Shown here: positions 15,996-46,621 of the stretch, piece by piece
Numbering within the stretch: position 1 is the stretch's first letter
Layout of the letters: the number at the start of each line of letters is the position of its first letter
DNA from: a virus
Strand: one strand, 5' to 3'
IMG/VR virus record: IMGVR_UViG_3300032046_000013
Location: 22,228-86,227 of that record
Length of the DNA: 64,000 nt
Translations under genes and position numbers: made by a program
The notes under the pieces: generated by a model
What the model saw: the letters and a program-made list of their open reading frames with translations, nothing else
Database searches by the model: none
Told to the model about the DNA's origin: nothing

Positions 15996-16044
15996 AAGAG
16001 ATTCGTTTTGACGAATCAAATTTGTTTCATTGAGGTTAAAAATC
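15996..16044 (-). promoter_or_regulatory. putative late promoter/activator site, copy 1
   Basis: 49-bp match (1 mismatch) to 46573-46621 containing the palindrome GATTCG-TTTTGA-CGAATC. It lies directly upstream of the head operon. Confidence 0.7.
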
Positions 16045-17117: not shown

Positions 17118-17351
17118 ATGCAACTCGATAAGAACCATCTCAAGGAGATCGAACGACACCTGATGGTGCATCTCGATCTGGGAATCACGATTCCGGTGCT
17201 CGACGGCAAAGGCGAGGACACTGGCGTGGTGGTCTACGTCGGAACTCCAGTCTTGGGTTTGATCCGGGGCACTCGGGATATGATGACATTTGTGGCTCGG
17301 CACCTGACTCTGGACTTCCAAACCAATCCAAAAGGAGATACCCATGACTGA
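17118..17351 (+). CDS. hypothetical protein
   Basis: AGGAAG RBS, coupled to the next gene. Confidence 0.5.
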
Positions 17352-26499: not shown

Positions 26500-29400
26500 C
26501 TACTGGGTAAAACGCGCAGACTGTTTGACCTTACCTTTTGGAGTCTGGGGCTTGCCACTCTGCTCCCATACTTCTTTGGCGATCTGATAGACTTCGATGC
26601 CTTGCTTGGATAGACCCTGGAAAAGTCCTTCATGGAACTGCTCCATCAGATCGTAATACCGATCTAGCTGTTCCTCGAAGCCTTCCTCGCCCGCCACAAG
26701 GTCTCCAGCCAAGTCCATGACCTGCTGACTGTAAGTATCGAGATCGGCATTGCGGCCCAGATATTCCAGCCACGCCTGCACGAGGTCTTCGGAATGGTTG
26801 GCATATCGCAGTTGGCCAGTCATTTCTTCCCGAACCTGATCGGCGGAAACGGCTATGCCAGCTTCGGCGGCTTGGACACCCACATCGTAGGCCCCGCCAC
26901 CAGCCCCGATTTTCCGCCTTGATGTTTTCTCCGGGGCCTGGGGTTTCCTTGGAGTCTTTCCCTTTGGACGCTCGGGCACCAGTTGGCGAGCCAATTTCCA
27001 AACATTGATCCCGCGTTCGCCTAATCCCGCGTCCACGCCTTCCCAAAAACCTTCTGAGATTTCCAGGTGATCCTCCACCATATCTTCGCCTTCGCCTTCG
27101 GATTGCTCTACAACCTTCCGCAGATGCGACGCAAATTGGTCCGTGCTCTCCCATGATTGTTGCCAGTGTTGAACCAAGCTCTCCGCGTCATCGCCCGGCC
27201 CCATCTTATCCAAGTCCTGCTCCATCTGCTTAAGGATGTCGTCGGCAGATTCAAACATCCAGGCATCTTGAGCCGCATGAAGACCGGCCTGATATGCGAG
27301 ATTCCGAATATCCGGAGTGCCCCCGACTTTCCGCCTTGATGTTTTCTCCGGGGCCTGGGGTTCGCCTTCGGTGTCGGGTTCGACAGCGAAGAAATTGAGC
27401 GTGACATCAAGCAGTTGCTGGCCGATTCCCGAAACGCCTTCTTTTAATTTCCCCTCATCCGCATAGGCACCCAAGTCATACGGGGGCATCGCGCCGAATC
27501 TCAGTGGCTCACCGATACCTTCTTCGCTTGATTCGATTATGGCATTGTAAAGCGGGGACTCAGGCGTAGCATCGAAACTCCCGCTCAAGTCTCCATCATG
27601 ATCATGACCTTCATTTTGCGCCCAGTTCACAACGGTTTTCAGCCATGCTTCGGTGTTTTCCTCCAATAGGGCGACATCCTGATTCAATTGGTCCCAAGCC
27701 GCGTCGTCGAGAGTGATCCCCCGTTCCTCGGCGTTCTGCTCGATCTCAAATTGATCCGTGGTGCTGATCGAGAATCCACCTTTGATCGGCCCCTGGTAGT
27801 CGTCTGGGAGAGTGGCGGTCTTGCGCTGGCCCATTTTTTCTAATTCATTCCAGTCGCTTTCGCTACTGAGATATTCCTCTCGCTCTTGGTCTTCATCCCA
27901 CTCGATTACCACGCCTTCGATGCCATTGTAGGGTGGGTTGACCTCGATAACTCTCCCGATTCGACCTGACTGATCTTTCACTTCATCTCCAAGCCTGAAT
28001 GGATTCACGGCAGTCTTGCGCTGGCCTTCCACTTCATTTCCGCCACCCGAGTAGGTATCAATGGAATCCCGGACTTCCTGGATTTCCTGCGCGACTTCGC
28101 CCGTCGCTTCCGCCGCCACGGAGTTCACGAGGTTCTCCACCATTTCCAGTTCATCCGGTTCAAAGCCCCGCAAGTCCTCGCCATCGAGGATGCGCTGGAT
28201 ATTCTGGATCACATCGGTCTGGCCCCGGTCGGATTTTTGGGTCAACAGCGTCGCCAGTGGCCCGAACTTGGCCCCGACCTTGCGCCGACCTTCCTTGCGC
28301 GGCTTGACCTCGCCCCCGCCTTTCAGGTCTGGCGACTTCATCGTCCGGTCATCCACCAGATTCTTCTCCGGGTCCTGACCCCTCCGCTTGTATTCTTCTC
28401 TGAGCAGATTCAGTTCCCCCTGTTCGGTAATGGTCAGGGACTTCGCGGCTTCCCTCTGTTCGAGCCGTCCGATTGACTGAGCCAAGACTTTCGAGGGAAT
28501 GCTCTGGAAGTGCTTGGTGTAATGGTCGGCCTCCTTTTTCGTCGGTATGATCTCGGCCAGCACCTGATCCCGGAACAGGTCCTCCGCTGTGTCGCGCAGG
28601 GTAATGCCCGTGACGTGGGTTGAGGCGGCCCGGAACAGGCCCCCGATGCCCTGGGTGGCCATAATGCCTTCGGGCGTCTGGTCCCCGCGTTTGAGGGCTT
28701 CCCGAAGGTATTCCATGTCCCCCCGGCGTTCCCGTTCCAGGGCTTGCCAGACCTGATGGGCGTTTTTCTCGAAATACCGATCAAAGACTTGGCGATCCGA
28801 CTGCATGGCCTGGAGACGACGGCGCATCCCCTCGGCTTCGTGACCCGTGACTTCGGTGATGCGGATGGTAATATGACTCAAGGTTCCACCTTCGCCAGAA
28901 TTATCCGCCATACCCAAGGCTCCACCTTCGGCTATCGCAACCTGGTTTCCTGACTGATCTGAGATTCCGAAATACAGGGAACTCGTGAAATTCACCCAAC
29001 CCTGATTCGGGTCCACTTCATCGACCTCGGTGTTGATTCCATCTGGGGCGAATTCCGCATGGTAAGTGCCTTGGCCGAACTCCCGATCCAGAATGAAGTT
29101 CACGTTCTCCTCGATCAGATCGTTACGACCCCGACTATCCTCAAACTCCGCATCGATGTCTTCCAGTTCAAACTCCGCACCGAGTCCGAGCGAGAAGTCG
29201 AAGCCTTCCTCCAACTTGGCCCCGTGCTTGCGCATCCCCATTTTTCCGCCCTCGACTTTCTCCAGATTGCCATCTCCGAGGTTAACCCCGATAGCCCCCA
29301 AGGCCCATGTTCCCTTCCGACCCGTTGGTTGCAGTTCCTCATCCAGATATTCAACCGTGGCCACGAAACTATCCCAGCGGGCTTCGGGAATATCAGCCCG

Positions 29401-31116
29401 ACTGCCCGTGTCGGTGATATTGGTGATCCTGAATGACTTAAAGCCTGATCCTTGAAAAACATCACCGACCCGAATCTGCTCGATCAACTGGTTATAATCT
29501 GGTTTCCTGGCCCCTTTCTTACCCCCAGGCTGACGGTCCGCCATCGGACGGCCCGAGCTGGAATTGGGCCGGCAGCCGAAAATATCGCCTCCGCCGGCGT
29601 CCATCCCCTCATCCTCTGCCGTGCTCGCGGTCTGGTCAGCCACTGCAACCGCATGTTTGCATTTCCGGCCATGCTCACCGGCGGGACAGGAACAGGCCCA
29701 TCGCCGCAACTCGCCGTCCATTCCGAGAAACCGGACCTCATAGACGTTGCCGGAATCGCTGTGCACCGCCCAGGTTTCGTTTTCGCCGTTTTTTTCGATT
29801 TTCACCACGTGCTCGAAACCTGGGGGAGTAACCGAGAATTTGAGACTGGCCTGGAGTTTCTTTCCGCCCCGGGCCAGCAGTTGTTCAATCGCACTCTGGG
29901 GATCGTCGCCAAGTTTATCGGTCTTGGTGTCGCCGCCCCACCGATTGGGTTGGGAGATTTTCACCGGCCTCAGCACATGGGTCGGTCCATATTCGTAATA
30001 TCCGACCGAACCATCGCCCTGGACTATCGCCACTTCTCCGTCAGGCATCTGGTAGGCTCCATGAACCGTAGCTTGTTTGCGTTGGCCCATGTTGATCGTG
30101 CCTGATCCGACTCGCTTGCCGCCCTGCCTCACCAATTCCTGTATGGCTTTGCGCGGACCACCGAAATCATCAATCGGAGTATCGGTATGTTGCATCGTCT
30201 TGGCATCATAATATCCGACTGATCCGTCACCGCTTACTCTGGCGAGTTCCCCGTTGGGCATCAGATACATCCCGTAAGTCGAGCCTTGCTTGCTCCAGGC
30301 AGTCCGCAGAATGCGCGTGGCCTCTTTCGCTTCCTCGGCTTCCGGTTCGGGTTTCTTCGACTTCTCGCTCGGACTCGGTTTGGAATCCGAATTCTCCCCA
30401 AACGCTTCCGCCGTGGCCTCATCGATCAGTTTCTGACCATCCAGACCCTGGGAATCTGCGACCTCCACCAGTTTCTCCTGATGACTCTGCTCATCCAGGA
30501 TGATCTCGTCCACGAGGCCCTCGGCCTCCCCGTTTTCATCCGAGGTCAGGGACTCCGCGAGTTCCTGATATTCGCCTGGAGCCTTCACTTCATCGACCAT
30601 CGCATCCTCAATCAGGTCTTTCAATTCGGACTCCCCGGGTTCCGTTTCCTCGGTTTCCGGTGTCCGTTCCTCTTCCGCATGTTTCCGCATTTTCTTCTCT
30701 CCTTGTTTCGTCCCATAACCCGCGCTTTCCAGGACATCCAGAGCCGCCCGTGAACCGATGCTCCGCAAGATCAGCGTATAAACTCCCGCATTCTCCGTAT
30801 CGTAATTCAACTGGGCTTCCAGAATCGGCACGGCCCGATCTCCAAATTGCACGACAGTCCGATATGCGCCCGATTTCAGGCTGGCATCCGGGCTTTCAAT
30901 AACTTCACGCAATAAGTCGGTGATCGTTTCCTCAATATCGGGACGGCGAGATCGTTTGGGCACATCATATCCTTCACGTCGCGCCATGTCATAAGCAATA
31001 GCCGCCGCTTGTTCCTGGGATTTGCCTTCGCCAATCAATTTTTTGATCTTTTGGCTGATCCACGCTTGAGCCTCGTCCGTGAGTTTGGCCCCGATCTTAC
31101 GCACTTCGTTTCTCAT
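26500..31116 (-). CDS. 1538-aa acidic mosaic protein, putative internal head polyprotein
   Basis: About 14 small modules (HEAT-like, ferritin-like, two GDGSVGYY domains, SWIM, SH3-like) separated by RKIGA/RKHA/RKQA/RKTA/RKVG-type linkers. Confidence 0.7.
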   Translation of the reverse strand: MRNEVRKIGAKLTDEAQAWISQKIKKLIGEGKSQEQAAAIAYDMARREGYDVPKRSRRPDIEETITDLLREVIESPDASLKSGAYRTVVQFGDRAVPILEAQLNYDTENAGVYTLILRSIGSRAALDVLESAGYGTKQGEKKMRKHAEEERTPETEETEPGESELKDLIEDAMVDEVKAPGEYQELAESLTSDENGEAEGLVDEIILDEQSHQEKLVEVADSQGLDGQKLIDEATAEAFGENSDSKPSPSEKSKKPEPEAEEAKEATRILRTAWSKQGSTYGMYLMPNGELARVSGDGSVGYYDAKTMQHTDTPIDDFGGPRKAIQELVRQGGKRVGSGTINMGQRKQATVHGAYQMPDGEVAIVQGDGSVGYYEYGPTHVLRPVKISQPNRWGGDTKTDKLGDDPQSAIEQLLARGGKKLQASLKFSVTPPGFEHVVKIEKNGENETWAVHSDSGNVYEVRFLGMDGELRRWACSCPAGEHGRKCKHAVAVADQTASTAEDEGMDAGGGDIFGCRPNSSSGRPMADRQPGGKKGARKPDYNQLIEQIRVGDVFQGSGFKSFRITNITDTGSRADIPEARWDSFVATVEYLDEELQPTGRKGTWALGAIGVNLGDGNLEKVEGGKMGMRKHGAKLEEGFDFSLGLGAEFELEDIDAEFEDSRGRNDLIEENVNFILDREFGQGTYHAEFAPDGINTEVDEVDPNQGWVNFTSSLYFGISDQSGNQVAIAEGGALGMADNSGEGGTLSHITIRITEVTGHEAEGMRRRLQAMQSDRQVFDRYFEKNAHQVWQALERERRGDMEYLREALKRGDQTPEGIMATQGIGGLFRAASTHVTGITLRDTAEDLFRDQVLAEIIPTKKEADHYTKHFQSIPSKVLAQSIGRLEQREAAKSLTITEQGELNLLREEYKRRGQDPEKNLVDDRTMKSPDLKGGGEVKPRKEGRRKVGAKFGPLATLLTQKSDRGQTDVIQNIQRILDGEDLRGFEPDELEMVENLVNSVAAEATGEVAQEIQEVRDSIDTYSGGGNEVEGQRKTAVNPFRLGDEVKDQSGRIGRVIEVNPPYNGIEGVVIEWDEDQEREEYLSSESDWNELEKMGQRKTATLPDDYQGPIKGGFSISTTDQFEIEQNAEERGITLDDAAWDQLNQDVALLEENTEAWLKTVVNWAQNEGHDHDGDLSGSFDATPESPLYNAIIESSEEGIGEPLRFGAMPPYDLGAYADEGKLKEGVSGIGQQLLDVTLNFFAVEPDTEGEPQAPEKTSRRKVGGTPDIRNLAYQAGLHAAQDAWMFESADDILKQMEQDLDKMGPGDDAESLVQHWQQSWESTDQFASHLRKVVEQSEGEGEDMVEDHLEISEGFWEGVDAGLGERGINVWKLARQLVPERPKGKTPRKPQAPEKTSRRKIGAGGGAYDVGVQAAEAGIAVSADQVREEMTGQLRYANHSEDLVQAWLEYLGRNADLDTYSQQVMDLAGDLVAGEEGFEEQLDRYYDLMEQFHEGLFQGLSKQGIEVYQIAKEVWEQSGKPQTPKGKVKQSARFTQ
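29533..29804 (-). repeat. 272-bp copy of the SWIM zinc-finger gene at 54307-54578
   Basis: Direct alignment by eye gives 3 mismatches in 272 bp. Confidence 0.95.
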
Positions 31117-32573
31117 TTTTTTCTCCCCGGATAGGGTTCTTTCGCATAGGTCGGATCGTCCTGAGCGTTTTCATTTTCCCGCTCTTCCCATGCTTGCTGA
31201 TCTTCGGCCTGCAGTTCGGCCACGGCTTGATCGAATTTCCGATTGAACTCTATGGGATTATTCTCCTGAAACAGGTAATGCAATTCTTTCTCCGCATTAC
31301 CGAGTGGTTGCTTGTCGATTGTGATCTCACGGGCATTCACTGCGGATTCCAGCGCATCATAAATGGCTTGTCGCAACTGACCTTCGACATCGGAGATCGT
31401 TCTGAGTTCATCCCAGAGTGCGTCAGCAGGATTTACCTCAGTCCCGTGCTTGGCCAGCGTTCCGTATCCGCCTTGGCCCCGCTCTTCCACCGTTTCTTTG
31501 ACCTGACCGGACTGGCCGACCTGGGATTCCGACTTCTCGTTATTTTCCAGTTCTTTTAACGAATTGAGAAATGCCTCGGTGCCCAAGGTCTGCACGTGCT
31601 CCATATAGGACTGGGCTAAATCAGGCGCGACCTCCGCCGCAATTTGGCTTACCAAATCCCAATCAATTTCTTGACCTTTGGGAACTCCGTCCTCCACTTC
31701 CGACTGGCGTAGTTCCGGCAGATGCTCGGCCATCCGCTGATTGATCTCCCAGAAGTCCTGGTCCTCATCGGCTTGGTCAGTCTGTCCGATCTTCGATAAC
31801 GATGGTAATTTCCGGGGGTCCAGTGCCCGGCGTCCTGCTGATTCAAACTGGACGATCAGCACGTTCTCCTCGGGATGAACTTGGAGAACCTGACCCCGAC
31901 CATAGCGGCGATAGAATACTTCATCACCTGGGTGGAAGTCCGCGATCCGAACGGCGGTTTTCTCCATCCGTCCCACGGTCTCCTGACCTTGGCCGATGTC
32001 CAGGATATAGGCCCGAAGCCGATCCGTGTCCATTCGACGTGCGGATTCGACCTGAGAGTCCCCGATCCCCGCCATTGCGCACTTCGATTTCAGATAATCC
32101 ACTAGTTGCGAGTGCGAGGCTGATCCAAGTCTCGCATGATCGGCCTGGATCAATGCTGAAAGTTTTTTCATCTTCCGCTCCCTTATCCCATAATCCAACT
32201 TCGTCCGCATCGGATTTGGAAATTTACTCGCTGTCGGAATGAACGACGCGACTTCTGCTGGATCGCCCCGGAGTATCGACTGGCCATCCAGCACGACATC
32301 TAGCTGTGCAATCAGATTATCCCATTGGACATCGATCAATGCACCCTGGGGATGAACCTTCGGAGCCAGGGAGATCACGGTTCCGCCCAGCCGATCATAC
32401 GTCCTAGTCACTCGGTCGCCCCGGAACACATCGAACGGCCCGCCCCGGAGAATCGCTGGAACCATCACATCATGGGCCTGCATATCCTCAGACCGGGGAC
32501 CGAAACGGTTGATCGTGCTGTGTTTAATAGTCGCCACGTGCCATATCTTCCCGAGTCGGAGGATTCTCTTCAT
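31113..32573 (-). CDS. mosaic protein, putative internal head polyprotein (includes PcrA/UvrD-CTD-like Tudor module)
   Basis: Linkers KMKKLSA, MEKTAV, SKIGQ and AKHGT. It contains the module DFHPGDEVFYRRYGRGQV...VQFESAGRRAL. Confidence 0.6.
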   Translation of the reverse strand: MKRILRLGKIWHVATIKHSTINRFGPRSEDMQAHDVMVPAILRGGPFDVFRGDRVTRTYDRLGGTVISLAPKVHPQGALIDVQWDNLIAQLDVVLDGQSILRGDPAEVASFIPTASKFPNPMRTKLDYGIRERKMKKLSALIQADHARLGSASHSQLVDYLKSKCAMAGIGDSQVESARRMDTDRLRAYILDIGQGQETVGRMEKTAVRIADFHPGDEVFYRRYGRGQVLQVHPEENVLIVQFESAGRRALDPRKLPSLSKIGQTDQADEDQDFWEINQRMAEHLPELRQSEVEDGVPKGQEIDWDLVSQIAAEVAPDLAQSYMEHVQTLGTEAFLNSLKELENNEKSESQVGQSGQVKETVEERGQGGYGTLAKHGTEVNPADALWDELRTISDVEGQLRQAIYDALESAVNAREITIDKQPLGNAEKELHYLFQENNPIEFNRKFDQAVAELQAEDQQAWEERENENAQDDPTYAKEPYPGRKK

Positions 32574-35500
32574 GGTTTCTGATCTCGTCTTCGAGTTTCC
32601 GCTCATCTTCCTCAGTCAAGGGAATTTCCTGTCCATCCTCATCGACCAACCGGATACTGTGAATCTCCGTCTCTGGATGTTCCTCTGGCGAAGTCTCTGT
32701 CCGTCTCAGACCCGGACTGAAACTTGTTTGGTAATAAATCGTGGCATCCCGTTCATCCGGTCCCCAGACGGTGGGTAACGTTTCTTCACCTCCACGTTTG
32801 GGTAGGACCTCATCTATCGATGCCCGGACATCCTTGCTCGCTACGGTAGTCAGAGTCATGCCCCCGTGGTCATCCAGAATCCAGACATTGGGCCAGAACT
32901 GTTGCTGTTCCATGCAAGCCTTGATCGCATCGTCAATGTCCTCAAAGTGGTTTCCCTCCCCGAAAAGGAACTCATCAGAGCCGACTTGGACTTCGTAATA
33001 CCCATCTGGGGTTTGCTCGATGACTTTCTTACCTCCCTGTTCCCATACTTCAGTTTTTCCACCCAAATGTCCAGTTGATTGGATCACCAGATCGCCGTCC
33101 TCGGGTTCCTGCGGTTCGTCCATCGGCTCGGCTTCCAACTCTTCCAAGGTTCCTTGTTTGGGTAGGACCTCATCTTCGGAAAAGTCAATGTGCTTGATCA
33201 TGCCCGTGCCACCGCATTCGGGACATCCAGATTCCCTGCCCCCAGGAATTTGCCCTTCACCTTGGCAGGTGGGACATAGTTCGATTGAGGAAAATTCAGA
33301 GCCTCTGCCCGGAGGAACAGCCACTACTTTTGCTTTTCTTTTTTTAAATTCAGCCCATTCCTGTTCCTGCCTCTGGCTCCAATCCTCGATTTGTTTTTTC
33401 TGATATGCCTTATCTATCTTTTTTCCCTTCCAGTTTCCCCGGGGTTTGCTCAGCTCCGATGGTGCGTCTTTGTCCTGGGCGACTTTCTGGCTACTCGTGG
33501 CCAGAGTTCCCAACTGGGCCATCTGATTCTGGAGGTCAGTTGGAGGCCCATAATCCCAATACTTGACCTCGACTCCCGGAAACATGACCTTGAAATATTG
33601 CTTCGGTTGATTATGTTCCAACTGATAAGGTTCATTTCCATACATGGCCTTGGCCCAAGCGACCCATTGGTAAGCCGAGAGTTTGGCTTCCTGCTCGGAA
33701 TCGCGGTGCAGATGGATGGCCCCACTCGGATCGGTCTCAGGAATCTCGAACATCGGATCAGCCCCCTGCTTGGGCACGGCCCATGGGTCAATCGAAGCGG
33801 GTTTCTGACTTGTGCCCTTCACTTCTGGCATGTTCGGTGCAGGAGTCAATGGATCATATTCTCCGCCCTTGATCTGTTCTAAGTAATCATCCGCCAGTTC
33901 CTGGGCTACGGCTTGGCGCACGGCCTGGGGGAACATCTTGTGCCACGGCTGATCAGGACTTCCGAACTCCTTGGCGTATTTCTTGGCTCCATTCTCGACC
34001 AGATACATCCACAGTTTCGGGGCCAGTGCGTGGTTGTAAGTCTGGTTTTTGAGCCGCCGCTGGATGTTCCGAATGATCGGCATGAACTGCTGGTGGTAAA
34101 GGTCAGCATCGTTCTCGATGAACAACCGGAGTTCTTGCGCCCCATATTCATCTTTGTCTGGATCGGGAGGCAGATCACTCTGCCATTCATTGTAATCCAT
34201 GCCGAGGACTGGCAATCCCAGTTCTTCGTCCCAGACGCTCAGCTTTTTCATCTTGCTCCCCTTATGAGATTGAATAGCGCGTTCCTGTCGTTCGGCATCA
34301 GCCTTTGAATCATGGGTGCCCAGCCGTTTCTTTCCGTCATGGGAGTAGAGCACCCACGAGTCGCCTTCTTGGCGGATGACCGCAGTTTTGGCGGGGGCTA
34401 TGCTTTCGATTGATTTTTCAATCTGCGTATCCACCTCGAATTCTGTCAACCCGTTTTCGCGGGCCAGTCTTCCAGCCCACACTTTCGCCACTTCAAACAT
34501 ATCAGTAGATTGTGTAGTGCCAGCTATATTGGTTCCGTGAAACTTTTTAGGATCATCAACCACCTTGACTTGTAGTTGCCCACGCCTCGGCTGGCATACT
34601 GCTACCCAATACATTTGTCGTGCAGTCTTTCTCATCGCTAGCACTGGGGCGAACATCGGGAGATATAACGTGTCCTCGATCTCCTGGGCCAACACGGTTT
34701 CGCCCATGACTTTCAGCCGTTCGAGCAGGGCCATGAACCAGGCTTTGCCCCGTTCCAGATATTTACGGACGAACGCCTCGGCCCCAGTGTCGGTCGGCTG
34801 GGATTCGGTCTCAATCACCTGCTCGATCTGGGTGGGCAGGGGAAAGTCCGACATCGCCTCCTTGGCCTGGATCGGCGTAATATCGATCTCGTCCGCCTGG
34901 ACATAGCACTCGGACTGGAGGAACTTCGCAGCCTCGCGCACGGACCTCAGAGTCGGAAAGTCCGCGATTATAACTTTCTGGCCCTCGGTCACCAGCCGTC
35001 CACCGTGGGCGAGACAGAAAGACCGAGCGTCCCGGAAAGATGCCTGGACGAACCCGGGCATCTGAGACCACCCGGCCTTTACGAGGTTCGGGAACGTCAT
35101 CCTGTAATGTTCAGTCTGCGCGAGCGTCGGCATGGTCGGCTCCTTCAGTTTTAGCGGCTTCCCGTCAAAGATCGGACTGGGTTCCAACGTCCCGTCCTCG
35201 CGGGTGTGAAATCCCGCAGGTGTGCGGGGTTTCAGGTATGAGGGCGAAGTGATGTCACGTTTCTTTCCACCCTGTTTGAGTATGGATAATACCTGTTCCA
35301 GCGAATCGGATTCCGGGGAATCCTTGACGATATTAAAATCCTTCGGCTCGTGCTCGTGCGATGTCCGGGCATGGTCGGAGATGCGGACATCCAGATATTT
35401 TTCTTCCTCATCCGTCCCGTCCTTGCGGAAAGTCAGATAGTCGGACTGGGATGACATGGCCCCATACTCATTGCTCAGTTCCCAGCCCCCGGCATCGGCG

Positions 35501-35724
35501 GCATCCTTGATCTGATCTTCTACCGAATCCTTCCATTCGTGCCATTCTTCGCGTTCCTGGCACTGTTCGCATAACCGGGATTCGCCTTCCAAGGGCACGG
35601 CCTCAGTGTCTATCAGATCGCCGTCATCATCGTAAGTATCGGTGATCTCGGCCTTGACCTGCACCAGATGGTCACACTGTTCGCACGGCCACCGGGCATA
35701 GTCGGTTCGCGTTTCAGTTCGCAC
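32524..35724 (-). CDS. 1066-aa acidic mosaic protein, putative internal head polyprotein
   Basis: Linkers AKEAM, MRKTAR, AKTAV, KMKKLSV, QKVAQ and PKQG. Modules include VRISDH, ELRLFIENDADLY and a CPTCQGEG...CPECGGTG Zn finger. Confidence 0.65.
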   Translation of the reverse strand: MRTETRTDYARWPCEQCDHLVQVKAEITDTYDDDGDLIDTEAVPLEGESRLCEQCQEREEWHEWKDSVEDQIKDAADAGGWELSNEYGAMSSQSDYLTFRKDGTDEEEKYLDVRISDHARTSHEHEPKDFNIVKDSPESDSLEQVLSILKQGGKKRDITSPSYLKPRTPAGFHTREDGTLEPSPIFDGKPLKLKEPTMPTLAQTEHYRMTFPNLVKAGWSQMPGFVQASFRDARSFCLAHGGRLVTEGQKVIIADFPTLRSVREAAKFLQSECYVQADEIDITPIQAKEAMSDFPLPTQIEQVIETESQPTDTGAEAFVRKYLERGKAWFMALLERLKVMGETVLAQEIEDTLYLPMFAPVLAMRKTARQMYWVAVCQPRRGQLQVKVVDDPKKFHGTNIAGTTQSTDMFEVAKVWAGRLARENGLTEFEVDTQIEKSIESIAPAKTAVIRQEGDSWVLYSHDGKKRLGTHDSKADAERQERAIQSHKGSKMKKLSVWDEELGLPVLGMDYNEWQSDLPPDPDKDEYGAQELRLFIENDADLYHQQFMPIIRNIQRRLKNQTYNHALAPKLWMYLVENGAKKYAKEFGSPDQPWHKMFPQAVRQAVAQELADDYLEQIKGGEYDPLTPAPNMPEVKGTSQKPASIDPWAVPKQGADPMFEIPETDPSGAIHLHRDSEQEAKLSAYQWVAWAKAMYGNEPYQLEHNQPKQYFKVMFPGVEVKYWDYGPPTDLQNQMAQLGTLATSSQKVAQDKDAPSELSKPRGNWKGKKIDKAYQKKQIEDWSQRQEQEWAEFKKRKAKVVAVPPGRGSEFSSIELCPTCQGEGQIPGGRESGCPECGGTGMIKHIDFSEDEVLPKQGTLEELEAEPMDEPQEPEDGDLVIQSTGHLGGKTEVWEQGGKKVIEQTPDGYYEVQVGSDEFLFGEGNHFEDIDDAIKACMEQQQFWPNVWILDDHGGMTLTTVASKDVRASIDEVLPKRGGEETLPTVWGPDERDATIYYQTSFSPGLRRTETSPEEHPETEIHSIRLVDEDGQEIPLTEEDERKLEDEIRNHEENPPTREDMARGDY

Positions 35725-37655
35725 TATTCCGTGTCCTCGTTCGGATAGGGGACTTGCGATTCGTCCATTGGCTTTTCAATTCCCATCAAATCATCAAATT
35801 CTGAGCGATCACCATGAAGAAAAGCATCTGCAATAAGTTCCAACATGGGTGGTTCCGGTGCGGGTTCATCGAGTTCCGCGAAGAATTTTTGCATGGTCAT
35901 GGAGTTGATCTCGGCGTTGGGGTCTTCGGGAATTCTATTCATTGTTTTCTGAAGAAAATTCCAAAGGGCATTGGCGAGCGATGCAGTTTTCTTCCGTCCT
36001 TCCGTCGGCTCCTCGGCCCAGGGGTTGTTGTCAGGCGATTGCCCAGCCGAGGTCTTGCGCGAACCTACGGCTGAGGAAAACTTGGGCTTCCATCGGTTCT
36101 GTCTCTTGGCCGAATCCTTGAGCAGATCGCGGAGCCAACTCTCGAAATTCGATGTCCGCACCACGGCCCCATTGCGGGTCATCGCGTCCAGTTCGGACTT
36201 ACCCACGGAGGTCGTGGCCCCGTCCTCCCAGGCGACGATCCACAGAGACTGACCCCGCTCGACCGCTGCATCCACGATCTTACCAGTCCTGTAAGGTTCG
36301 ACCTGCTGGAACTCATCTTCGACATTCCACCGGAACATCCGCGATCCCTGAACAGGCTGTTTCTTCGCGTCCGCGAGCAACCGCTCGAACACATCCACGG
36401 CCCGTTCCAGATTACCCGTGAGTTTCTCCCACAGGCCCTTGATCGAGTCCCAGATCCCGGCGGTCACGATCCGGCTTTGCTTGGCTGGTTTGACCTTCAC
36501 CGTTTTGATGTCCGAGATCGAGGTCGTCTGTTTTGTCAGGTCAGCCAGCAGTTTCTCGACCGTCGCTTTTGCTTCGGCATCCACATGCTTCAGGGCCTCG
36601 GCAAGGGCTACGGGATATGTCCGGGCATACGACGGGTTCTCTTTGGTCGTCCATGCCAGTTCGTAAATGTCCTGGTCCAGCCGGATGCGGAGTTTGCCCA
36701 CCGACTGCACGGCCTTGAAGATTGCCGGGTAGGCCATGAGTGCATCCCTATCTTTCTTCATCTGCTTGTCCAGCGTCTCGAACTGGTGCTTGGCCTCGTC
36801 GCACTTGGCCAAAGTTTCTTTAAGCGACCGCAGAGACTGCTCGATCTCCGGTGGCAGACCCGCCAGTTCGCCTTCGGGAACCCGGGCCGGAAGTCCGGGG
36901 TCCTCGCCCATAGGCATGTTCTTGTCGGCAGTCTTGCGCGAACCTTGTTTTTTCCATTGACCCGAAGCAATCAAATTTTCCAACTCAGTTTCTTTCAGCC
37001 AATGTTCGCCACCATGAGGGTCTCCCTCGATAGTAACCCAGTAACGCGGTTCCCCCCATTCTTCAGGGCCTTCGTTGGCCATTTCCTTAATCGTATATCG
37101 CTGGCCTTTCGAGTCTGTGAAACTTTCCCCTACTTGATGTAGCATTGTCTCGGATCGTAAGGCACGCTTGGTCAGTCCGAGTTCCCGGGCCAGCCGATCA
37201 GCCCGGCCCAGCTTGCGCGAGGCTTCTTTCCAGGCATGGTCAGGATAGAACAGGTCTTTGGCGTTCGGGTTGTCCATGGAGTCCCCACGCCAACCGCCGT
37301 CCACGCGCTGACCCCGGATTCGGTGAGTATTCCTCTGCTGCTCCGGGGGGTTCCGATAAGATTGGGCGGCATCGCTCGGAATTAGCGTGAACTCCCGGAC
37401 TTCCGAATCATCGGCGGTCTTGTCCAGCCCGAGTTCCTGGGCCAGCCGGTCGGCCCGCGATTGTCCCTGCTTGGGCATCACTTCCTGCTTTTCCTGCCGG
37501 TGACCCACGAAGTCCAGTTCATCGGCCTTGAGGTCCCCATGAAAGAATCCCAAGTCCCCATACCGATCAATCTGCGCCCGCAGGTCATCCCGGGGTTCGC
37601 GTTTGGGACTTACCGCATTTTTCATCAACCTAGTCAGATGATCTGCTTCAGACAT
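35724..37655 (-). CDS. mosaic protein, putative internal head polyprotein
   Basis: Start MSEADHL with an AAGGAG RBS. Linkers DKTAD, TKRAL, SRKTAD, RKTSA and RKKTAS, and a duplicated RADRLA.ELGL. Confidence 0.65.
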   Translation of the reverse strand: MSEADHLTRLMKNAVSPKREPRDDLRAQIDRYGDLGFFHGDLKADELDFVGHRQEKQEVMPKQGQSRADRLAQELGLDKTADDSEVREFTLIPSDAAQSYRNPPEQQRNTHRIRGQRVDGGWRGDSMDNPNAKDLFYPDHAWKEASRKLGRADRLARELGLTKRALRSETMLHQVGESFTDSKGQRYTIKEMANEGPEEWGEPRYWVTIEGDPHGGEHWLKETELENLIASGQWKKQGSRKTADKNMPMGEDPGLPARVPEGELAGLPPEIEQSLRSLKETLAKCDEAKHQFETLDKQMKKDRDALMAYPAIFKAVQSVGKLRIRLDQDIYELAWTTKENPSYARTYPVALAEALKHVDAEAKATVEKLLADLTKQTTSISDIKTVKVKPAKQSRIVTAGIWDSIKGLWEKLTGNLERAVDVFERLLADAKKQPVQGSRMFRWNVEDEFQQVEPYRTGKIVDAAVERGQSLWIVAWEDGATTSVGKSELDAMTRNGAVVRTSNFESWLRDLLKDSAKRQNRWKPKFSSAVGSRKTSAGQSPDNNPWAEEPTEGRKKTASLANALWNFLQKTMNRIPEDPNAEINSMTMQKFFAELDEPAPEPPMLELIADAFLHGDRSEFDDLMGIEKPMDESQVPYPNEDTE

Positions 37656-38307
37656 CGCTATCTCCTTCATCATCAAAAATTTCGCGCAATCGCTCCAACC
37701 GCGCTTCGTGCGTTGATCCCTCGGCCAGCCCGAACTCATCCAGGTCGGGATGCACCCTGTCCGTGTAGCTGTTCCTGAACGTCTGTTCTTCCATGGTGAT
37801 ATCCGAGACGTTGCGTCGAAGTTCCGCATCTTCGCCTGCGGATTCCCGCACATCGGACTGTCCTCGATCATGGGACGAATCATACGGTGCTCGGGTAAAA
37901 TCGATGCCGGGAATGGCACCGGAGAAATCGTCCAAGCCGAGGTCTATCTCGTTTTCGTTGAATTCCGGGACTTCCCCAAACTGCGGATTTTCCCCTCGGG
38001 GTATGGGTTGGCCCCGGAATTCCCGTTCTCGGGGTTCAGAATCACGGCGAGGATCAGGGGTTGGCGCGGCTTGGACGGGTATCCCTTGGCTCGCACCCCA
38101 AGTCACAAACCCCGATTGGGGTCCTGCGAGATCAGCCCGAGTAATGCCTTGAAGCAAATCATCCGCTGATATTCCTGGCTCCGCACCCCACCGTTGTTCG
38201 ATGATCTGACTTCCGACCTTGATCGTCCGCCGAGGTCCCAAGAATCGGAAACCTTCTCGGGGGTCCTTGCCACCGCTACCCTCGCCATCAAATAATTTCC
38301 TCATCAC
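37648..38307 (-). CDS. hypothetical acidic protein
   Basis: AAGGAG RBS, overlapping the next gene. Confidence 0.55.
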   Translation of the reverse strand: MMRKLFDGEGSGGKDPREGFRFLGPRRTIKVGSQIIEQRWGAEPGISADDLLQGITRADLAGPQSGFVTWGASQGIPVQAAPTPDPRRDSEPREREFRGQPIPRGENPQFGEVPEFNENEIDLGLDDFSGAIPGIDFTRAPYDSSHDRGQSDVRESAGEDAELRRNVSDITMEEQTFRNSYTDRVHPDLDEFGLAEGSTHEARLERLREIFDDEGDSDV

Positions 38308-38316
38308 CCGCTCCTT

Positions 38317-38688
38317 TTATATGCCGATCAGCCGTTCATGCTCCGGCTTTTCCAGATAATGCCGGATCGCCGAGATCGAGGTCCGAGCCAGTTCGATAGC
38401 TCCTTCGTAGGTGGCGTGATCTATCTGATCGCCACTCAGCAAGTGCGGCAACTTCATGTTGATCTGCCACTCCTGAGTTCGGATACACGCCTGAAGCCAT
38501 TCCTCGAACTCGGATTTCAGGCCGACTCGATTCTGCTGAGCCGCTTGCAAAAACATTTCGTAGAGGTCCACGATATGCTGTTCGTCGTCCCAGTCGTCTG
38601 GCCGCAGTTTGCCCGCGAATAGAGTTCGCTTCTCCGCAGGCAGGCCCATGAAGGCCCGGATTTCATCGGGCGAGACTAGACTGACCAT
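38317..38688 (-). CDS. hypothetical protein
   Basis: GGAGGT RBS before ATG 38688 (MVSLVSPDE). Confidence 0.55.
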   Translation of the reverse strand: MVSLVSPDEIRAFMGLPAEKRTLFAGKLRPDDWDDEQHIVDLYEMFLQAAQQNRVGLKSEFEEWLQACIRTQEWQINMKLPHLLSGDQIDHATYEGAIELARTSISAIRHYLEKPEHERLIGI

Positions 38689-38997
38689 CGGCTTTTTACC
38701 TCCGAACGAAGTGTCCCGACTCGATCTGTGATACGCTCCCCCGCATGAATGCGGGGGCATCTCGGATCAGACATGGGCCTCACCCGATACGCTTGTCGGT
38801 TCTACGATCCGGCTTACTTTTCTGTAACGAAAAGCAGGGGCCGTGATCTCCCCGACCGTCACTTCGGGCGTAACCCGCCCTAGTTCGAGAATGATTCATC
38901 GAGGTCTGCCTGGGCTTCCCTTGGATACACTGGGGCAAATTTCATTGCCTCATCGTAGTCATGGTCATTTATCAGCCGTTTTTCTGTCGTTTCCATC

Positions 38998-39570
38998 TCA
39001 CCCTTCTCCTTTGATCGTCACATGCGTGATTCCCGGACTCGGCTTCGCTACTTCCGATTCCGGGGGCCTGAGCAATATCCGAAAAGCCGGGACCTGAATC
39101 AATGCGCTTTGAATGTCCGTAGGCAATTCATCCCATTGGTCTAGCAACAATTCACGGCTCGGAACTTCACCGAAAATCGATTGCAGAATCCCGACCCGTT
39201 TTTCGATAATCATCTGATCCCATTGCTCTTGCGCTCGGGTTTCTATCGAGGAAATGTGCGCGGTTTTACCGTAACTCAACATCGTCGCCCTCTGGTCCCC
39301 CATGCCCGGAGACTTCTCTTTTCCAGGCACGGGAAATGACAGTAGGTAATCTATGCGTTTCAAATACTGATCAACTGCGATGCAGGAGTTCACGATAGAC
39401 ACCACAGAGACTGCCATCGCCCGTTGGAGTTGGGATAACTGAATATCCTGCTCCCGGTCTGAGGGTAGCAGATGTCGGTTCTCCACGGTCTGCCGCAGAC
39501 GAATCGCCGCATTGCGGATGTCCGCCACGGCTTGGTCGATCTCACTGCGCTTATTTATCTGATCAGCCAT
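38998..39570 (-). CDS. hypothetical protein with K-x-A/S linkers
   Basis: Has INKRSE and GKTAH, and is coupled to the upstream gene. Confidence 0.55.
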   Translation of the reverse strand: MADQINKRSEIDQAVADIRNAAIRLRQTVENRHLLPSDREQDIQLSQLQRAMAVSVVSIVNSCIAVDQYLKRIDYLLSFPVPGKEKSPGMGDQRATMLSYGKTAHISSIETRAQEQWDQMIIEKRVGILQSIFGEVPSRELLLDQWDELPTDIQSALIQVPAFRILLRPPESEVAKPSPGITHVTIKGEG

Positions 39571-41597
39571 CAGAATCCATACTGGGACATCGAAGGCCCC
39601 TTGCTCACATTCTCATCCGACGGCTGGATGCCCCGCCGCACGGGTTCGCCCACTTCCAACCCCATCCCGAGTTCCTGCCGTAGGTCATCATCAGTCTGAA
39701 CGGGCAATCCCTGGGATTCCGCCTGTTCGACTAACTGATCAACCTCGGACTTCAGTTGGGAAATCTCTTCGGTCAATGAATCCCTGTGCGTTCGCCATTC
39801 CATCACCCGCTCTTTTAATGTATCCATCCGATCCGGCGTCTGGATCACTTGGGGCGTGACCGGGGCCACCATCTGGGTCAATTGATCCAGAGGCACCAGA
39901 TCGAAACTCAGGGGGCCTTCCACGACCTGAAATTCCATGCCGTCGCATCCGTCCAGACCGTAACCCTGCTTGGCGCGGAAGGCGAATATCCCGGGTTCCG
40001 TTTCCTCAAAATGTCCGTCTCGAATGCTTCCCATTTTGGACAGGGGGATGCGGTTGGGCAACCGAGCAATAGAGGCCCGGAATTGCTCGTCCGTAATTCG
40101 AGTATCCTCCAGGCCAGCGGTTTTCGCTGTGGCGGGTATTCGGCGCGAGAGCATTCCCTTGTAAAATTCCCGATCTTCCGGGGATGAGTAATAGTAGTTC
40201 ACCACCTCATCCGGGTCCAGGCCCTGATCTCGCGCCCAGTCCAGAATCTGATCTTCATCCCGCCCCTGGATACTGAATTGATCGATCTGGTCTTTCACTT
40301 CTTCGCTCAGGCGTGAGGTCTTGGCCACGGGTGTCGCGGACTTCCACTCTCCGGTCTCCGGGGTGAACCGATACCGCGAGATTTCCCGGTCTCCGTTCGG
40401 ACCAGAGAACACGGCAATCAGATAGGTCTGCTGGGGCGCAAACTGTCCATGCTGACGAGCCGCGAGCCGAGCCTGGGCTACGGATGGGAACTGGCCTAGG
40501 TCTTCCCCCTCGGGGGTTCGCACGGACACGACTTGGCGGAGTCTCCGCGAGGTCTTGGGCTTCTCATCCAGCGGCTTATGGCACTTCGGACACTCCTGCT
40601 TATCCGGGTCCAAAATCTGGAAATGACAATGCGGACATTCCCGAGGGTCCGGTTCGTTCACCGTATCGGCGTCCGCCGATGCCTGCTTTTTCCACCTGGG
40701 TTCATCCTCGACGTTCGCCGCAAGGTAGCCCATAACATCTTCCTTGAATTCCGAGGCCAGTTCGTGCACCGCTTCCTGGAGGCTCAGCTTGTCCGCACTC
40801 ACCTCGTTCACTTGCTCTCTGAGTGCTCGCACCCGATCCAGCATTTCCTGGTGCCCCGAACTCTTGGCCAGGGCCTCTTGCATGTCCAGCAGGTTCATGC
40901 CCAAGTCCCGGAGGTCCTGTTCGAGGCCCTGGCGTTCGGCCCCGACTTCCTCGATTTCCGAAGCAATGGTTCCGAATGGATCATCTTCACGAAAGGCCGC
41001 GAGAGTATCGCCTTCCTCAAGTCTCCACACTTCTCCGGCAGGATCGGGCCATTGATCGAATCGCTGGATTGCCCCGGACTTGGGTTTGATCTTCGCTTGT
41101 TTGTTCATCGCACCTTCATTCCGTTGGGCCTGTTTCATTACTGACCGGACATAGCCTAACTGGAATGGGGACACTTCGCCAGTTCTTTCATCTTGCAGAT
41201 CAATATCCGTCGCAAAAGGATTCCCAGAAGGCTGATATGGTTTCGATACCACCACATAAACATCTTCGCCATCGATCAATTTATCGCCGACACCAGGCGT
41301 TTCCATGAGTCCTTCCCAGTCGTCATCTTCATCTGGCTGTTCATTCACATTCGCACCTTCATTAGATTCATTTCTCATCGCAGTTTTCCTTCCCGTCGTA
41401 GCCGAATCATCGCGTTCCTGGACAATGGCCTGAGTGCCGATATTTGTCAAAAGGTTTTGCCTTGCCACCGCTTCTTCCTCAGTCTTGAACATCCCGTCCA
41501 ACATCCAGGAGTTAGCCACAAATTTCATCACCCGGAAACGTAGCATCGGACGATAGTCGATATCTCTCAATAGCCGATCAGCCGTGCGTGGCCTCAC
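39570..41597 (-). CDS. 675-aa mosaic protein, putative internal head polyprotein
   Basis: Linkers PRTAD, GRKTAM, MKQAQ, MNKQAK, KKQAS, AKTSR and AKTAG. It has a CPHC...CPKC Zn ribbon and coiled coils. Confidence 0.65.
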   Translation of the reverse strand: MRPRTADRLLRDIDYRPMLRFRVMKFVANSWMLDGMFKTEEEAVARQNLLTNIGTQAIVQERDDSATTGRKTAMRNESNEGANVNEQPDEDDDWEGLMETPGVGDKLIDGEDVYVVVSKPYQPSGNPFATDIDLQDERTGEVSPFQLGYVRSVMKQAQRNEGAMNKQAKIKPKSGAIQRFDQWPDPAGEVWRLEEGDTLAAFREDDPFGTIASEIEEVGAERQGLEQDLRDLGMNLLDMQEALAKSSGHQEMLDRVRALREQVNEVSADKLSLQEAVHELASEFKEDVMGYLAANVEDEPRWKKQASADADTVNEPDPRECPHCHFQILDPDKQECPKCHKPLDEKPKTSRRLRQVVSVRTPEGEDLGQFPSVAQARLAARQHGQFAPQQTYLIAVFSGPNGDREISRYRFTPETGEWKSATPVAKTSRLSEEVKDQIDQFSIQGRDEDQILDWARDQGLDPDEVVNYYYSSPEDREFYKGMLSRRIPATAKTAGLEDTRITDEQFRASIARLPNRIPLSKMGSIRDGHFEETEPGIFAFRAKQGYGLDGCDGMEFQVVEGPLSFDLVPLDQLTQMVAPVTPQVIQTPDRMDTLKERVMEWRTHRDSLTEEISQLKSEVDQLVEQAESQGLPVQTDDDLRQELGMGLEVGEPVRRGIQPSDENVSKGPSMSQYGF

Positions 41598-45090: not shown

Positions 45091-45999
45091 TCAGTGAACC
45101 GTTAAGGGCGACATATCGGAATCGCTGTCCCCGCGAAAAATTTTCACCGCTTGGCCCCGGGTCTTGATTTCGTTGAGGTTCCGCACTAGAAAATCCGATT
45201 CGTCTCTCGGGCTGGAAATCGCAATGAACTTATAATCCAGGGGAAATCGCGTAATCTGCGAAGCCCGGATACCCTGGGCGATTTCCTGCGCCACGTCATG
45301 ATCCGGGGTCTCATCAAAGTGCGAGGCTTCATCCACGCATCCGTAAAATATGTTGAAACCGTAAAACGCTTGGTATCCCGAATGACCGCAGACTGCCAAA
45401 ACATCGTTCGGAAATCTGATGTCCCGCGTATTGATCTGAGCATTGGCGAAGCACGCGGAGTATTTGATCATGGATTTCAATTCCTGGAAGATCACGCCCT
45501 GAGCTTCGGTGGCGGAGATGCTCATGTTCAACATGAGGATGAATACCCCGGGAGCCGTATGATAAATTTCCCGGACGGCTGGATAAGAGTTGAGGATAAA
45601 GGCCCCACGAGACAGGAGACCCGAACAAATATGGGATTTGCCCACGCCCTTGCCCGCGCAGATATAGACTTCCCTGACCGTCGGATCATCCGCCGCCATC
45701 ATGATGTCCATAATCCGGGGATAGGTCTCTCTCCGATTCATGTATTTCCGGCTTAACATGAACTCATCCATCGGGGGAATCCGTCTCGCTGGTTCAAAAT
45801 TGCGCAGGCTGATGTTCCGCAGGTCCGCAGAAATCTCCAGTGTCTCCCAGGCTTTGCGCTGGAGCCGTTTTACGATGTCGGTCTGGCCTTGGGCGATCAA
45901 TTCCAGAACCTCCAGTAATTGCCGACGATGACTTTCAGACAAAGAACCCGAGGCGAGAATCCGCTGCAGTTTCTCCATCTCTTTCCCCGCCTCGGTCAC
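45091..45999 (-). CDS. terL: terminase large subunit, N-terminal ATPase part (split gene)
   Basis: Walker A AGKGVGKS, NMSISATEAQGVIF, Walker B CVDEASHF and motif III ISSP. It directly follows TerS and ends after 302 aa. Confidence 0.8.
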   Translation of the reverse strand: MTEAGKEMEKLQRILASGSLSESHRRQLLEVLELIAQGQTDIVKRLQRKAWETLEISADLRNISLRNFEPARRIPPMDEFMLSRKYMNRRETYPRIMDIMMAADDPTVREVYICAGKGVGKSHICSGLLSRGAFILNSYPAVREIYHTAPGVFILMLNMSISATEAQGVIFQELKSMIKYSACFANAQINTRDIRFPNDVLAVCGHSGYQAFYGFNIFYGCVDEASHFDETPDHDVAQEIAQGIRASQITRFPLDYKFIAISSPRDESDFLVRNLNEIKTRGQAVKIFRGDSDSDMSPLTVH

Positions 46000-46572: not shown

Positions 46573-46621
46573 AAGAGATTCGTTTTGACGAATCAAATTT
46601 GTTTCATTGAGGTTGAAAATC
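46573..46621 (-). promoter_or_regulatory. putative late promoter/activator site, copy 2
   Basis: Near-identical to 15996-16044, about 35 nt upstream of terS. Confidence 0.7.

Follow-up and report, generated by a model that had tools for sequence, protein, structure and literature searches.

A recurrent Lys-x-Ala/Gly tag in giant multi-module head proteins of a phage G relative as a probable prohead-protease site

We analyzed a 64-kb stretch of DNA (hereafter "the window") from an 86,227-base virus record, IMG/VR IMGVR_UViG_3300032046_000013, in which a phage head module is encoded on the minus strand. Five large open reading frames (ORFs A to E, of 1538, 486, 1066, 643 and 675 amino acids [aa]) lie upstream of the portal gene, and their products are punctuated by a short basic tag that has Lys two residues before a terminal Ala or Gly. 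The excess of this motif is restricted to head-core proteins, and the motif matches an invariant site in the major capsid protein. Judging from these sequence comparisons, the tag is probably cut by the prohead serine protease that the phage itself encodes (14929-15753), and the five ORFs probably specify internal head proteins.

The phage is a relative of Bacillus phage G and of the Bixzunavirus mycobacteriophages. Phage G is the nearest cultured relative, with 38.7% identity in the capsid protein and 33.9% identity in the protease (over 78% of the query), and the cluster C mycobacteriophages come next. The closest relatives by capsid protein (P0002-P0006) show 75-80% identity.

Enrichment and shape of the tag

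An earlier interpretation made from the letters alone (the sequence-only reading) had described the five ORFs as strings of modules separated by K-x-(A/G/S) linkers. The ORFs are present as described, between a terminase-nuclease-like ORF and the portal gene, and all 29 of the linker peptides that were quoted can be found: 19 in the five ORFs, six in the scaffold, two in the capsid protein and two in the protease. The predicted excess of the motif in the pooled ORFs and the scaffold is likewise observed. In the pooled five ORFs, K[TQ]A occurs 14 times versus 2.29 expected, [RK]K[TQIVHL][AG] 16 times versus 1.57 expected, and K[TQIVHL][AG] 36 times versus 12.8 expected, and none of 2000 residue shuffles matched the count for any of the three patterns. 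Expressed per 1000 aa, K[TQ]A is found 3.11 times in the five ORFs versus 0.18 times in the other ORFs of the same record (22,143 aa), a difference of ∼17-fold (Fisher 2.4e-8). The excess derives mainly from ORF A (RK[TQIVHL][AG], 9 versus 0.2 expected, 0/500 shuffles), ORF E (K[TQIVHL][AG], 6 versus 1.3, 1/500) and the scaffold (K[TQIVHL][AG], 14 versus 4.0, 0/500), and is absent from the portal, the terminase part, a 506-aa ORF and the tail-side ORFs.

A pattern as loose as K-x-A might arise by chance or composition in proteins rich in Lys and Ala. Indeed, K.[AGS] runs ∼1.5-fold above expectation in most ORFs, and many matches to K-[VL]-A fall within conserved helices of the scaffold and the protease. 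The shuffle test did not uphold this explanation, and the additional signal at positions further upstream in the tag, together with the same result in independent relatives (both described below), also speaks against it. We regard it as highly improbable.

All five ORFs, and three smaller ones among them, are on the minus strand and overlap or abut one another between a 559-aa ORF (41594-43273) and the portal gene. ORF A (26500-31116) encodes a multi-module head protein with nine strict sites, for which the Lys at P3 (P1 being the residue before the putative scissile bond) is at residues 7 (31090-31098), 145 (30676-30684), 347 (30070-30078), 630 (29221-29229), 946 (28273-28281), 1034 (28009-28017), 1099 (27814-27822), 1263 (27322-27330) and 1402 (26905-26913). 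ORF B (31113-32573) begins at the second ATG, at 32573, of a frame that is open to 32606 (497 aa); it has a strict site at residue 205 and the peptide MKKLSA at residue 135, with a Shine-Dalgarno (SD)-like sequence before it. The multi-module head protein of ORF C (32524-35724) has strict sites at residues 366 and 446. Those of ORF D (35724-37655; ATG at 37655, frame open to 37919 or 731 aa) are at residues 79, 148, 236, 241 and 556, and those of ORF E (39570-41597), a head protein with coiled-coil stretches, are at residues 71, 155, 166, 304 and 492.

The "dozens" of linkers claimed initially are therefore reduced to 22 strict sites in the five chains, with a looser count reaching up to ∼36. 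Similarly, the modules had been put at 40-150 aa, a range that does not hold: the fragments between strict sites span 65-618 aa, with three further short fragments of 5, 9 and 11 aa. Their description as mostly acidic is accurate, since 19 of 26 fragments have an isoelectric point (pI) below 7. The whole proteins have pI values of 4.7-5.6.

A logo built on 30 strict sites (22 from the chains, seven from the scaffold and one from the capsid protein) extends the tag upstream. Gly occupies P6 in 10 of the 30 sites (4.1-fold) and Met occupies P5 in six (7.9-fold), neither position having played any part in picking the sites, and Arg is found at P4 in 15. The extended consensus is G-[M/Q/L]-[R/K]-K-x-[A/G], and the prime side is flat, with no residue preferred. 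Because the constraint is confined to the non-prime side (P6-P1) and P1 is small, the tag has the character of a protease subsite pattern. The reading that best suits the sequence is a Lys at P3 and a small residue, Ala or Gly, at P1, with P2 unrestricted and the predicted cut directly after P1. The codons used at the sites vary (AAA 16 times and AAG 14 times for Lys, and all four codons for Ala), and thus selection acts on the peptide and not on the DNA. For this reason we rejected a DNA-level motif, such as a recombination signal that yields the peptide as a by-product.

The capsid site, the protease and the proposed cleavage

The major capsid protein (11236-12177, minus strand; phrog_2522, E 3.5e-43) carries the site K52-I53-A54 (12016-12024), with a predicted cut at A54|A55. 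All 120 relatives that were examined conform to the family consensus G-[LIM]-x-[KR]-[IVL]-[ASG]|A-N. Position by position, P6 is Gly, P5 is Leu, Ile or Met and P2 is Ile, Val or Leu in 120/120, P3 is Lys in 109 and Arg in 11, and P1 is Ala in 117, Ser in two and Gly in one. The site is followed by A-N-[ML]-A-N-P-V-R, which is the start of the N-arm, and is preceded by 30-50 residues that are variable. In terms of sequence, the consensus at the N-arm border is the same as the tag of the chains, including the Gly at P6.

The capsid protein of phage G has 282 aa (31.2 kDa), and N-terminal sequencing established a mature form of 255 aa and 28.2 kDa (Hua et al. 2017, PMC5646251; this source, like PMC9026906, PMC10052503 and PMC5512222 below, is cited from excerpts). 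We recomputed a mass of 31.19 kDa before cleavage and of 28.17 kDa after a cut at A27|Q28. The HMMER alignment to phage G chain 6wkk_A is gapless in the N-arm region, such that residue n here corresponds to residue n-27 in phage G, and the sequenced phage G cut A27|Q28 therefore maps to A54|A55, just after K52-I53-A54. This link between the tag and a sequenced N-terminus is the new contribution of our analysis.

The same capsid site bears on whether the tag might be a targeting or docking peptide that binds scaffold, portal, capsid interior or DNA, and thereby loads or anchors the modules without being cut. Such a role would suit a basic tag among acidic modules, and there is a precedent for combined functions in the 10-residue capsid targeting sequence of T4, which holds both targeting and processing determinants (PMC9026906). 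However, one-sided conservation and a small P1 are typical of protease subsites, and the capsid copy of the tag is located at the sequenced phage G cut. Docking is also compatible with cutting, and a role in docking in place of cleavage seems to us quite unlikely.

The candidate for the cutting enzyme is the 274-aa prohead (head maturation) protease encoded on the minus strand at 14929-15753 (phrog_18299, E 5.6e-8; phrog_2774, E 1.8e-10). Its gene is located between those for the portal (23325-26060) and for the scaffold and capsid proteins (12723-14945 and 11236-12177). The protein has a His in the sequence LDHEN, a Ser in SMG and a Cys/His zinc-ribbon-like insert. The His in [LV][DN]H and the Ser in SMG are invariant in all four proteins that were aligned (this phage, phage G gp19, mycobacteriophage Alice gp90 and P0138), and presumably are the catalytic residues. 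Two peptides of the protease, K213-L-A and K239-I-A, are candidate self-cleavage tags. The sequences encoding protease and scaffold are separate ORFs here, with a 17-nucleotide (nt) overlap; a search of a word-indexed database for longer, fused relatives of the protease gave one match, an intein-bearing form.

The scaffold-like protein (740 aa; 12723-14945, minus strand) shows the motif excess noted above and has seven strict sites. Its residues 223-384 (236-397 in the 753-aa numbering used for BLAST) resemble residues 272-424 of the ORF A product (BLASTP, 36.9% over 168 aa, E 2e-17), and a 38-nt stretch of the corresponding DNA is 97% identical. The scaffold of the closest relative, locus L028, has no A-like module at that place. 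It does retain the N- and C-terminal K-T-A sites, at an overall identity of 37-41%, with the middle of the protein replaced. A scaffold start at MKTAE, which is preceded by a strong AGGAGG, was rejected because L028 conserves, at the protein level, the 30 residues before it.

The comparison drew on 52 metagenome loci anchored on the portal and 11 IMG/VR loci anchored on the capsid protein. The sequence-only reading had anticipated conserved linkers with high turnover of modules, and this is the pattern seen: the tag recurs in other giant ORFs, whose modules are almost all different. In G002, five giant ORFs upstream of the portal gene (4555 aa in total) contain KTA 13 times versus 1.27 expected (0/1000 shuffles), and in G005 three such ORFs (3819 aa in total) contain it 13 times versus 1.49 expected (0/1000). 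L033 (six KTA versus 0.66 expected, 0/1000) and L039 behave likewise on a smaller scale. The protease heads an ORF of 838-1637 aa in 12 of the 27 loci with a protease match. Among such protease-headed chains, that of P0138 (1360 aa) has seven KTA versus 1.0 expected (1/1000), and gp90 of mycobacteriophage Alice (1511 aa) has seven [KR][TQ]A versus 2.0 expected (6/1000); the tag excess is absent in Alice gp89. The capsid site of G001 has Arg at P3, and the two head giants of G001 (L004; C1:62539-65397 and 67426-70356) contain R[TQIVL]A 11 and 10 times versus 1.0 and 1.3 expected (0/300 and 0/500), with just two and one K[TQIVL]A. In many other relatives, just the terminase gene and one or two ordinary ORFs precede the portal gene, and thus giant arrays are confined to some lineages.

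Several observations weigh against cleavage at these sites by the head protease. Taken singly, the 497-aa and 1066-aa ORFs are not significantly enriched (75/500 and 47/500 shuffles), and the tag excess is also absent in L002 and in the 1412-aa ORF of G003. The sequenced phage G cut has Ala, not Lys, at P3 (R-V-A-L-A|Q), and capsid proteins of the G type carry [KR]-[IVL]-A two residues further upstream. Because of this Ala, what fixes the register with respect to K-x-A is positional homology together with the presence of Ala at P1 in both. L013 has Arg at P3 of its capsid site, yet its protease chain has nine K-x-A versus two R-x-A. Covariation of Lys and Arg as proof of a common reader was dropped, since G001 fits and L013 breaks the pattern, and P3 is consequently taken as basic only, with lineage-specific habits. 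When the motif's own residues are excluded, the upstream flanks are weakly linker-like (disorder-type residues 0.694 versus 0.633, p ∼0.017; hydrophobic residues 0.242 versus 0.270, p ∼0.11) and the composition of the downstream flanks is the same as background. The strict site at residue 366 of ORF C, in FAPVLAMRKTARQMYWV, is within a hydrophobic stretch, the SWIM module of ORF A starts 95 residues past the nearest strict site, and loose matches occur inside folded parts, as exemplified by K-H-A within the SWIM finger. No Pfam protease family matches the product of 14929-15753 at E <= 0.01. Moreover, the sites in this phage are known from sequence alone, the measured cut being that in the phage G capsid protein. 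Overall, the proposal that the linker is the prohead-protease site is probable and finds good support, by inference, in the one-sided consensus, the invariant capsid site, the phage G cut and the relatives.

If the tag is cut by the prohead protease, the chains presumably would be made late, along with the scaffold, and built into the prohead core. Possible handles for this step are the module common to the scaffold and ORF A and a look-alike of the capsid N-arm in the 486-aa protein. The protease then would cut after the small residue, with Lys at P3 and Ala or Gly at P1. Cutting would take 54 residues off the capsid protein, dice the scaffold and trim the protease itself, and would divide the five chains into pieces of 65-618 aa, at ∼22 strict sites or, if loose ones count, at up to ∼36. 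The protease as cutter, the exact scissile bond in this phage and the co-assembly of the chains are what we infer from the comparisons above.

The N-arm look-alike is the peptide NPMRTKLDYG at residues 120-129 of the ORF B product (32185-32214), just before the MKKLSA joint. It resembles the invariant capsid N-arm sequence NPVRTKLDYKG, found here at residues 59-69 of the capsid protein (11971-12003), and is the sole such match outside of capsid genes in the record and 80 loci. Because the codons differ, it is not a recent copy of the N-arm. It may serve as a handle for docking into the shell.

Module borders and growth of the chains

Residues 1-1200 of the ORF A product were searched against 1.84 billion representatives. 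Relatives were found for four stretches, or for three once the window's own two proteins were dropped. The first of these modules, at residues 9-60 (DUF6496-like, phrog_2423), has 82 matches with a median start at 9, directly after the site at residues 7-9. The second, a SWIM module at residues 444-498, has 31 matches that start at 444. The third, at residues 1111-1184 and with function unassigned, has 35 matches with a median start at 1111, ten residues past the site at 1099-1101. No strict sites are found inside the cores of these three homology-defined modules. In ORF C, a match to phrog_3684 starts at residue 447, the residue after a site. The suggestion that sites coincide with domain borders thus applies to two of the three ORF A modules, which begin 0-10 residues after a strict site; it does not extend to SWIM, and the weakly linker-like flanks lend it little. 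Stand-alone small proteins account for 23 matches to the DUF6496-like module, 30 to SWIM and 21 to the 1111-1184 module, and other long phage proteins (at least 400 aa) for 40, one and 11, respectively. A search of the ESM Atlas with residues 633-945 of ORF A gave no usable match.

Besides the 38-nt stretch common to the scaffold and ORF A, three sets of repeated DNA bear on how such chains might grow. The SWIM copy in ORF A (272 nt; 29533-29804, minus strand) is 99% identical to a free SWIM gene at 54307-54578, ∼25 kb away. The in-frame copy begins at the position of the free gene's ATG (GTG in the copy), and the free copy has a good ribosome-binding site. A 42-nt linker repeat at 26904-26945 (minus strand) is 98% identical to 27321-27362 and encodes PQAPEKTSRRK[I/V]G on either side of the ORF A module at residues 1266-1401; the modules neighboring this repeat have diverged past detection by BLAST. 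In ORF C, DEVLPK[QR]G joints are present on both sides of the module at residues 856-976, corresponding to a 25-nt repeat at 32791-32815 and 33151-33175, and residues 872-964 are 38.7% identical to a head ORF of G005. In-frame fusion or insertion between joints would cost little, since every joint would restore separate products. Such low-cost insertion would account for the recent copying of SWIM, for the linker DNA duplicated around single modules and for the almost complete replacement of modules among relatives.

The extent of this turnover is evident from BLASTP and TBLASTN searches with the head-region proteins against 80 loci, which yielded three module-level matches outside the proteins' own paralogue. 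Almost no modules are common to this array and the giants of G002, G003 and G005. A full-length homologue of the 1538-aa ORF was found among 0 of 8000 scored candidates at E <= 0.001, and no close relative of the array itself was seen among the loci, the closest head-gene locus (L028) spanning 533 bases upstream of the portal gene.

Gene fusion may have left its own marks. A Met is present at most five residues before the Lys in 11 of the 30 sites (0.12 expected), and an SD-like sequence precedes seven of 16 site-linked Met codons versus 11 of 105 other internal ones (Fisher 0.0026). These values suggest that some of the joints once were, or still are, gene starts, although the Gly, Glu and Lys codons preferred before the site could also yield an SD-like signal. 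One might therefore view the ORFs as a fused gene array that undergoes no proteolysis, in which the tag is the N-terminal signature (M-x-R-K-x-A) of once-separate genes or of live internal starts. Three observations would be expected of such an array: the AAGGGAGCGGAAG-ATG before MKKLSA is almost identical to the region around the true start of the 675-aa ORF, the first module has stand-alone relatives that begin with the tag (P0202, MSRKIG...), and small, separate head genes of phage G encode K-T-A close to the N-terminus. Conversely, 19 of 30 sites have no nearby Met, and the capsid site is 52 residues inside its protein, is invariant and coincides with the sequenced phage G cut. The SD-like signal is possibly a by-product of Gly, Glu and Lys codons at P6-P9. 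Fusion as an origin is compatible with cleavage and explains the growth of the chains, not the role of the tag, and as an explanation that dispenses with proteolysis we consider it unlikely.

Fate of the pieces and comparison with known systems

If the protease does release the modules, they might be retained in the head and delivered to the host, a proposal that we put forward only tentatively. The sequence-only reading went further and saw an expandable magazine of small effectors. Its expandable character agrees with the copied SWIM gene, the linker repeats around single modules and the module turnover. The identification of effectors, however, was not sustained: SWIM alone passes the curated cut-off, and the remaining candidates are sub-threshold zinc ribbons, SH3-like stretches, coiled coils or unmatched. 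No enzyme or toxin-type domain was recognized in the five ORFs in family searches of the Pfam/PHROG type.

It is also possible, although we would not call it likely, that the sites are cut but the chains constitute an enlarged sacrificial scaffold, which adds core mass to a large capsid and is expelled before or during DNA packaging with no delivery. Expelled scaffold proteins are acidic, as are 19 of the 26 fragments and the whole proteins here. One module is common to ORF A and the scaffold, the protease is fused to a long scaffold-like chain in the 12 of 27 relatives noted above, and the chains lack recognized domains of the enzyme or toxin type. Moreover, the internal proteins of T4 that remain associated with the DNA are basic (PMC9026906), and most SPN3US propeptides leave the head (PMC10052503). 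Against expulsion, the SWIM gene was copied and kept in frame, which is easier to explain if this module acts in the host, and near-total turnover of modules among relatives would be unusual for a purely structural core. In addition, escape through capsid pores is thought to involve fragments smaller than folded pieces of 65-618 aa. A sacrificial core and injected proteins would account equally well for the acidity of the pieces and for the module that ORF A has in common with the scaffold.

Among cultured systems, the head module of phage G (gp19 protease, gp20/gp21 scaffold, gp27 capsid protein, 6wkk) is the most similar. Gene order is the same as here, with terminase, several head ORFs, portal, protease, scaffold, decoration protein and capsid protein. 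The phage G capsid protein loses 27 N-terminal residues through a cut after Ala (PMC5646251), at the position homologous to the predicted cut here. K-T-A is found near the N-termini of phage G gp13, gp20 and gp19, and also in gp7, gp21, gp11 and gp4. In contrast to the five giant ORFs, phage G has mostly separate small genes, and its capsid P3 is Ala. We found no published cleavage rule or substrate list for the phage G or Bixzunavirus protease in the literature searched, and phage G gp7, gp11 and gp21 are not named in the main text of PMC12484599.

With respect to mechanism, head maturation in phiKZ/SPN3US and in T4 is closest. In phiKZ and SPN3US, one prohead protease (gp175 and gp245, respectively) follows a three-residue rule in many head proteins and makes several cuts in long propeptides, and ejection has been suggested for many internal proteins (PMC10052503, PMC9026906). 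Their rule is S/A/G-x-Glu with Glu at P1, unlike the Ala or Gly at P1 proposed here. In SPN3US, 13 of 14 sites in nine substrates serve to remove N-terminal propeptides from separate gene products and not to separate modules, according to the same sources. The capsid protein family of these phages is unrelated to that here. In T4, each of IPI-III and Alt has a short N-terminal tag that loads the prohead core and ends in a gp21 site, and the cargo varies among relatives (PMC9026906). A T4-like layout may be present in the N-terminus MRNEVRKIG|A of the 1538-aa ORF and in the scaffold K-T-A at residues 31-33, whereas the other four ORFs have no such N-terminus. T4 cargo consists of single small basic proteins, in contrast to chains of mostly acidic parts, and the motif and protease lineage of T4 also differ from those here.

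Polyvalent proteins (Iyer et al. 2017, PMC5512222) are another parallel, being giant multi-domain proteins that are encoded near head genes and predicted to be packaged and processed. As with polyvalent proteins, the five-ORF array adjoins head genes in a phage with portal-terminase packaging. Polyvalent proteins carry several enzymatic effector domains, and their processing was proposed to depend on their own metallopeptidase domain (PMC5512222). In the five ORFs, by contrast, an enzyme domain went undetected and the joints match the capsid site of the head protease. In the text of PMC5512222, the term "prohead protease" appears just in the reference list.

The protease-headed chains of relatives also recall an animal virus system, since many relatives of this phage (the 12 of 27 loci) fuse the protease to a scaffold chain. 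Herpesvirus assemblin, a capsid maturation serine protease in the same broad fold class as the phage prohead serine protease, processes a precursor that joins protease and scaffold, cutting at (V/L/I)-x-A|S on the C-terminal side of Ala. In comparison with assemblin/pUL26, P3 here is basic instead of aliphatic, the protease and the scaffold each have their own gene, and sites and modules are far more numerous.

The cutting of head proteins by a prohead protease is in itself well known. Absent from the literature searched are a basic-x-Ala/Gly rule for the protease lineage of phage G, cluster C mycobacteriophages and many uncultured phages from soils and sediments, and the stringing of unrelated modules into giant chains by head-protease joints. 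The rule gives exact predictions for cultivable phages (phage G and Alice/Bxz1), and would allow hundreds of giant head genes now labeled "hypothetical" to be reannotated. Should the pieces remain in the capsid, they would represent a large unexplored set of injected proteins and a route for protein loading. A more ambitious and doubtful idea is that the [KR]-x-A| rule constitutes an open loading format, whereby any in-frame gene placed between joints would be co-packaged via the anchoring modules and released in the capsid. If this were true, phages could charge their heads in advance with copies of their own early proteins, such as SWIM, and with rapidly changing factors directed at the host, all of which would enter the cell along with the DNA. 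The five ORFs would in that case be a payload magazine shaped by natural evolution, and the same rule might serve to load proteins of choice into capsids of the phage G type or of Bixzunavirus.

The genes that delimit the array are less uniform than its members. At the upstream end, the 559-aa ORF (41594-43273, minus strand) has no family match, and was taken in the sequence-only reading to be the nuclease part of the terminase. The sole terminase match between 41594 and 45999 is a weak one at 45091-45999 (phrog_2, E 0.0033), and the unrelated 506-aa ORF is located between these two. Three small ORFs of 219, 147 and 190 aa separate ORFs D and E (37648-39570, minus strand) and have no family match. 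At the downstream end, the portal gene (23325-26060, minus strand; phrog_16240, E 2.6e-47) contains a LAGLIDADG intein (PF14528, PF14890) at approximately residues 257-622. Portals of relatives are intein-free (G001, G003) or have inserts elsewhere (G002, G005). The portal N-terminus, M-A-K-Q-G|S (residues 21-23, 25993-26001), resembles the K-Q-G joints of the chains and may be a candidate site for N-terminal processing of the portal.

Other repeats occur elsewhere in the window. A 49-nt sequence with an internal inverted repeat is found twice (15996-16044 and 46573-46621, 98% identical), in each case just upstream of a minus-strand gene block, namely the protease operon and the block at 46538, and is a candidate for a shared promoter or operator. 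GC-rich repeat pairs at 4024-4077/6048-6101 and 5285-5313/7336-7364 have members ∼2 kb apart, each of which adjoins a minus-strand ORF of 360-400 aa. Tandem repeats are present within two further ORFs: ten copies of a 27-nt unit, up to 96% identical, at 17691-18068 in the plus-strand ORF 17344-18258, and three copies of a 48-nt repeat, 73-100% identical, at 49363-49506 in ORF 48906-49910.

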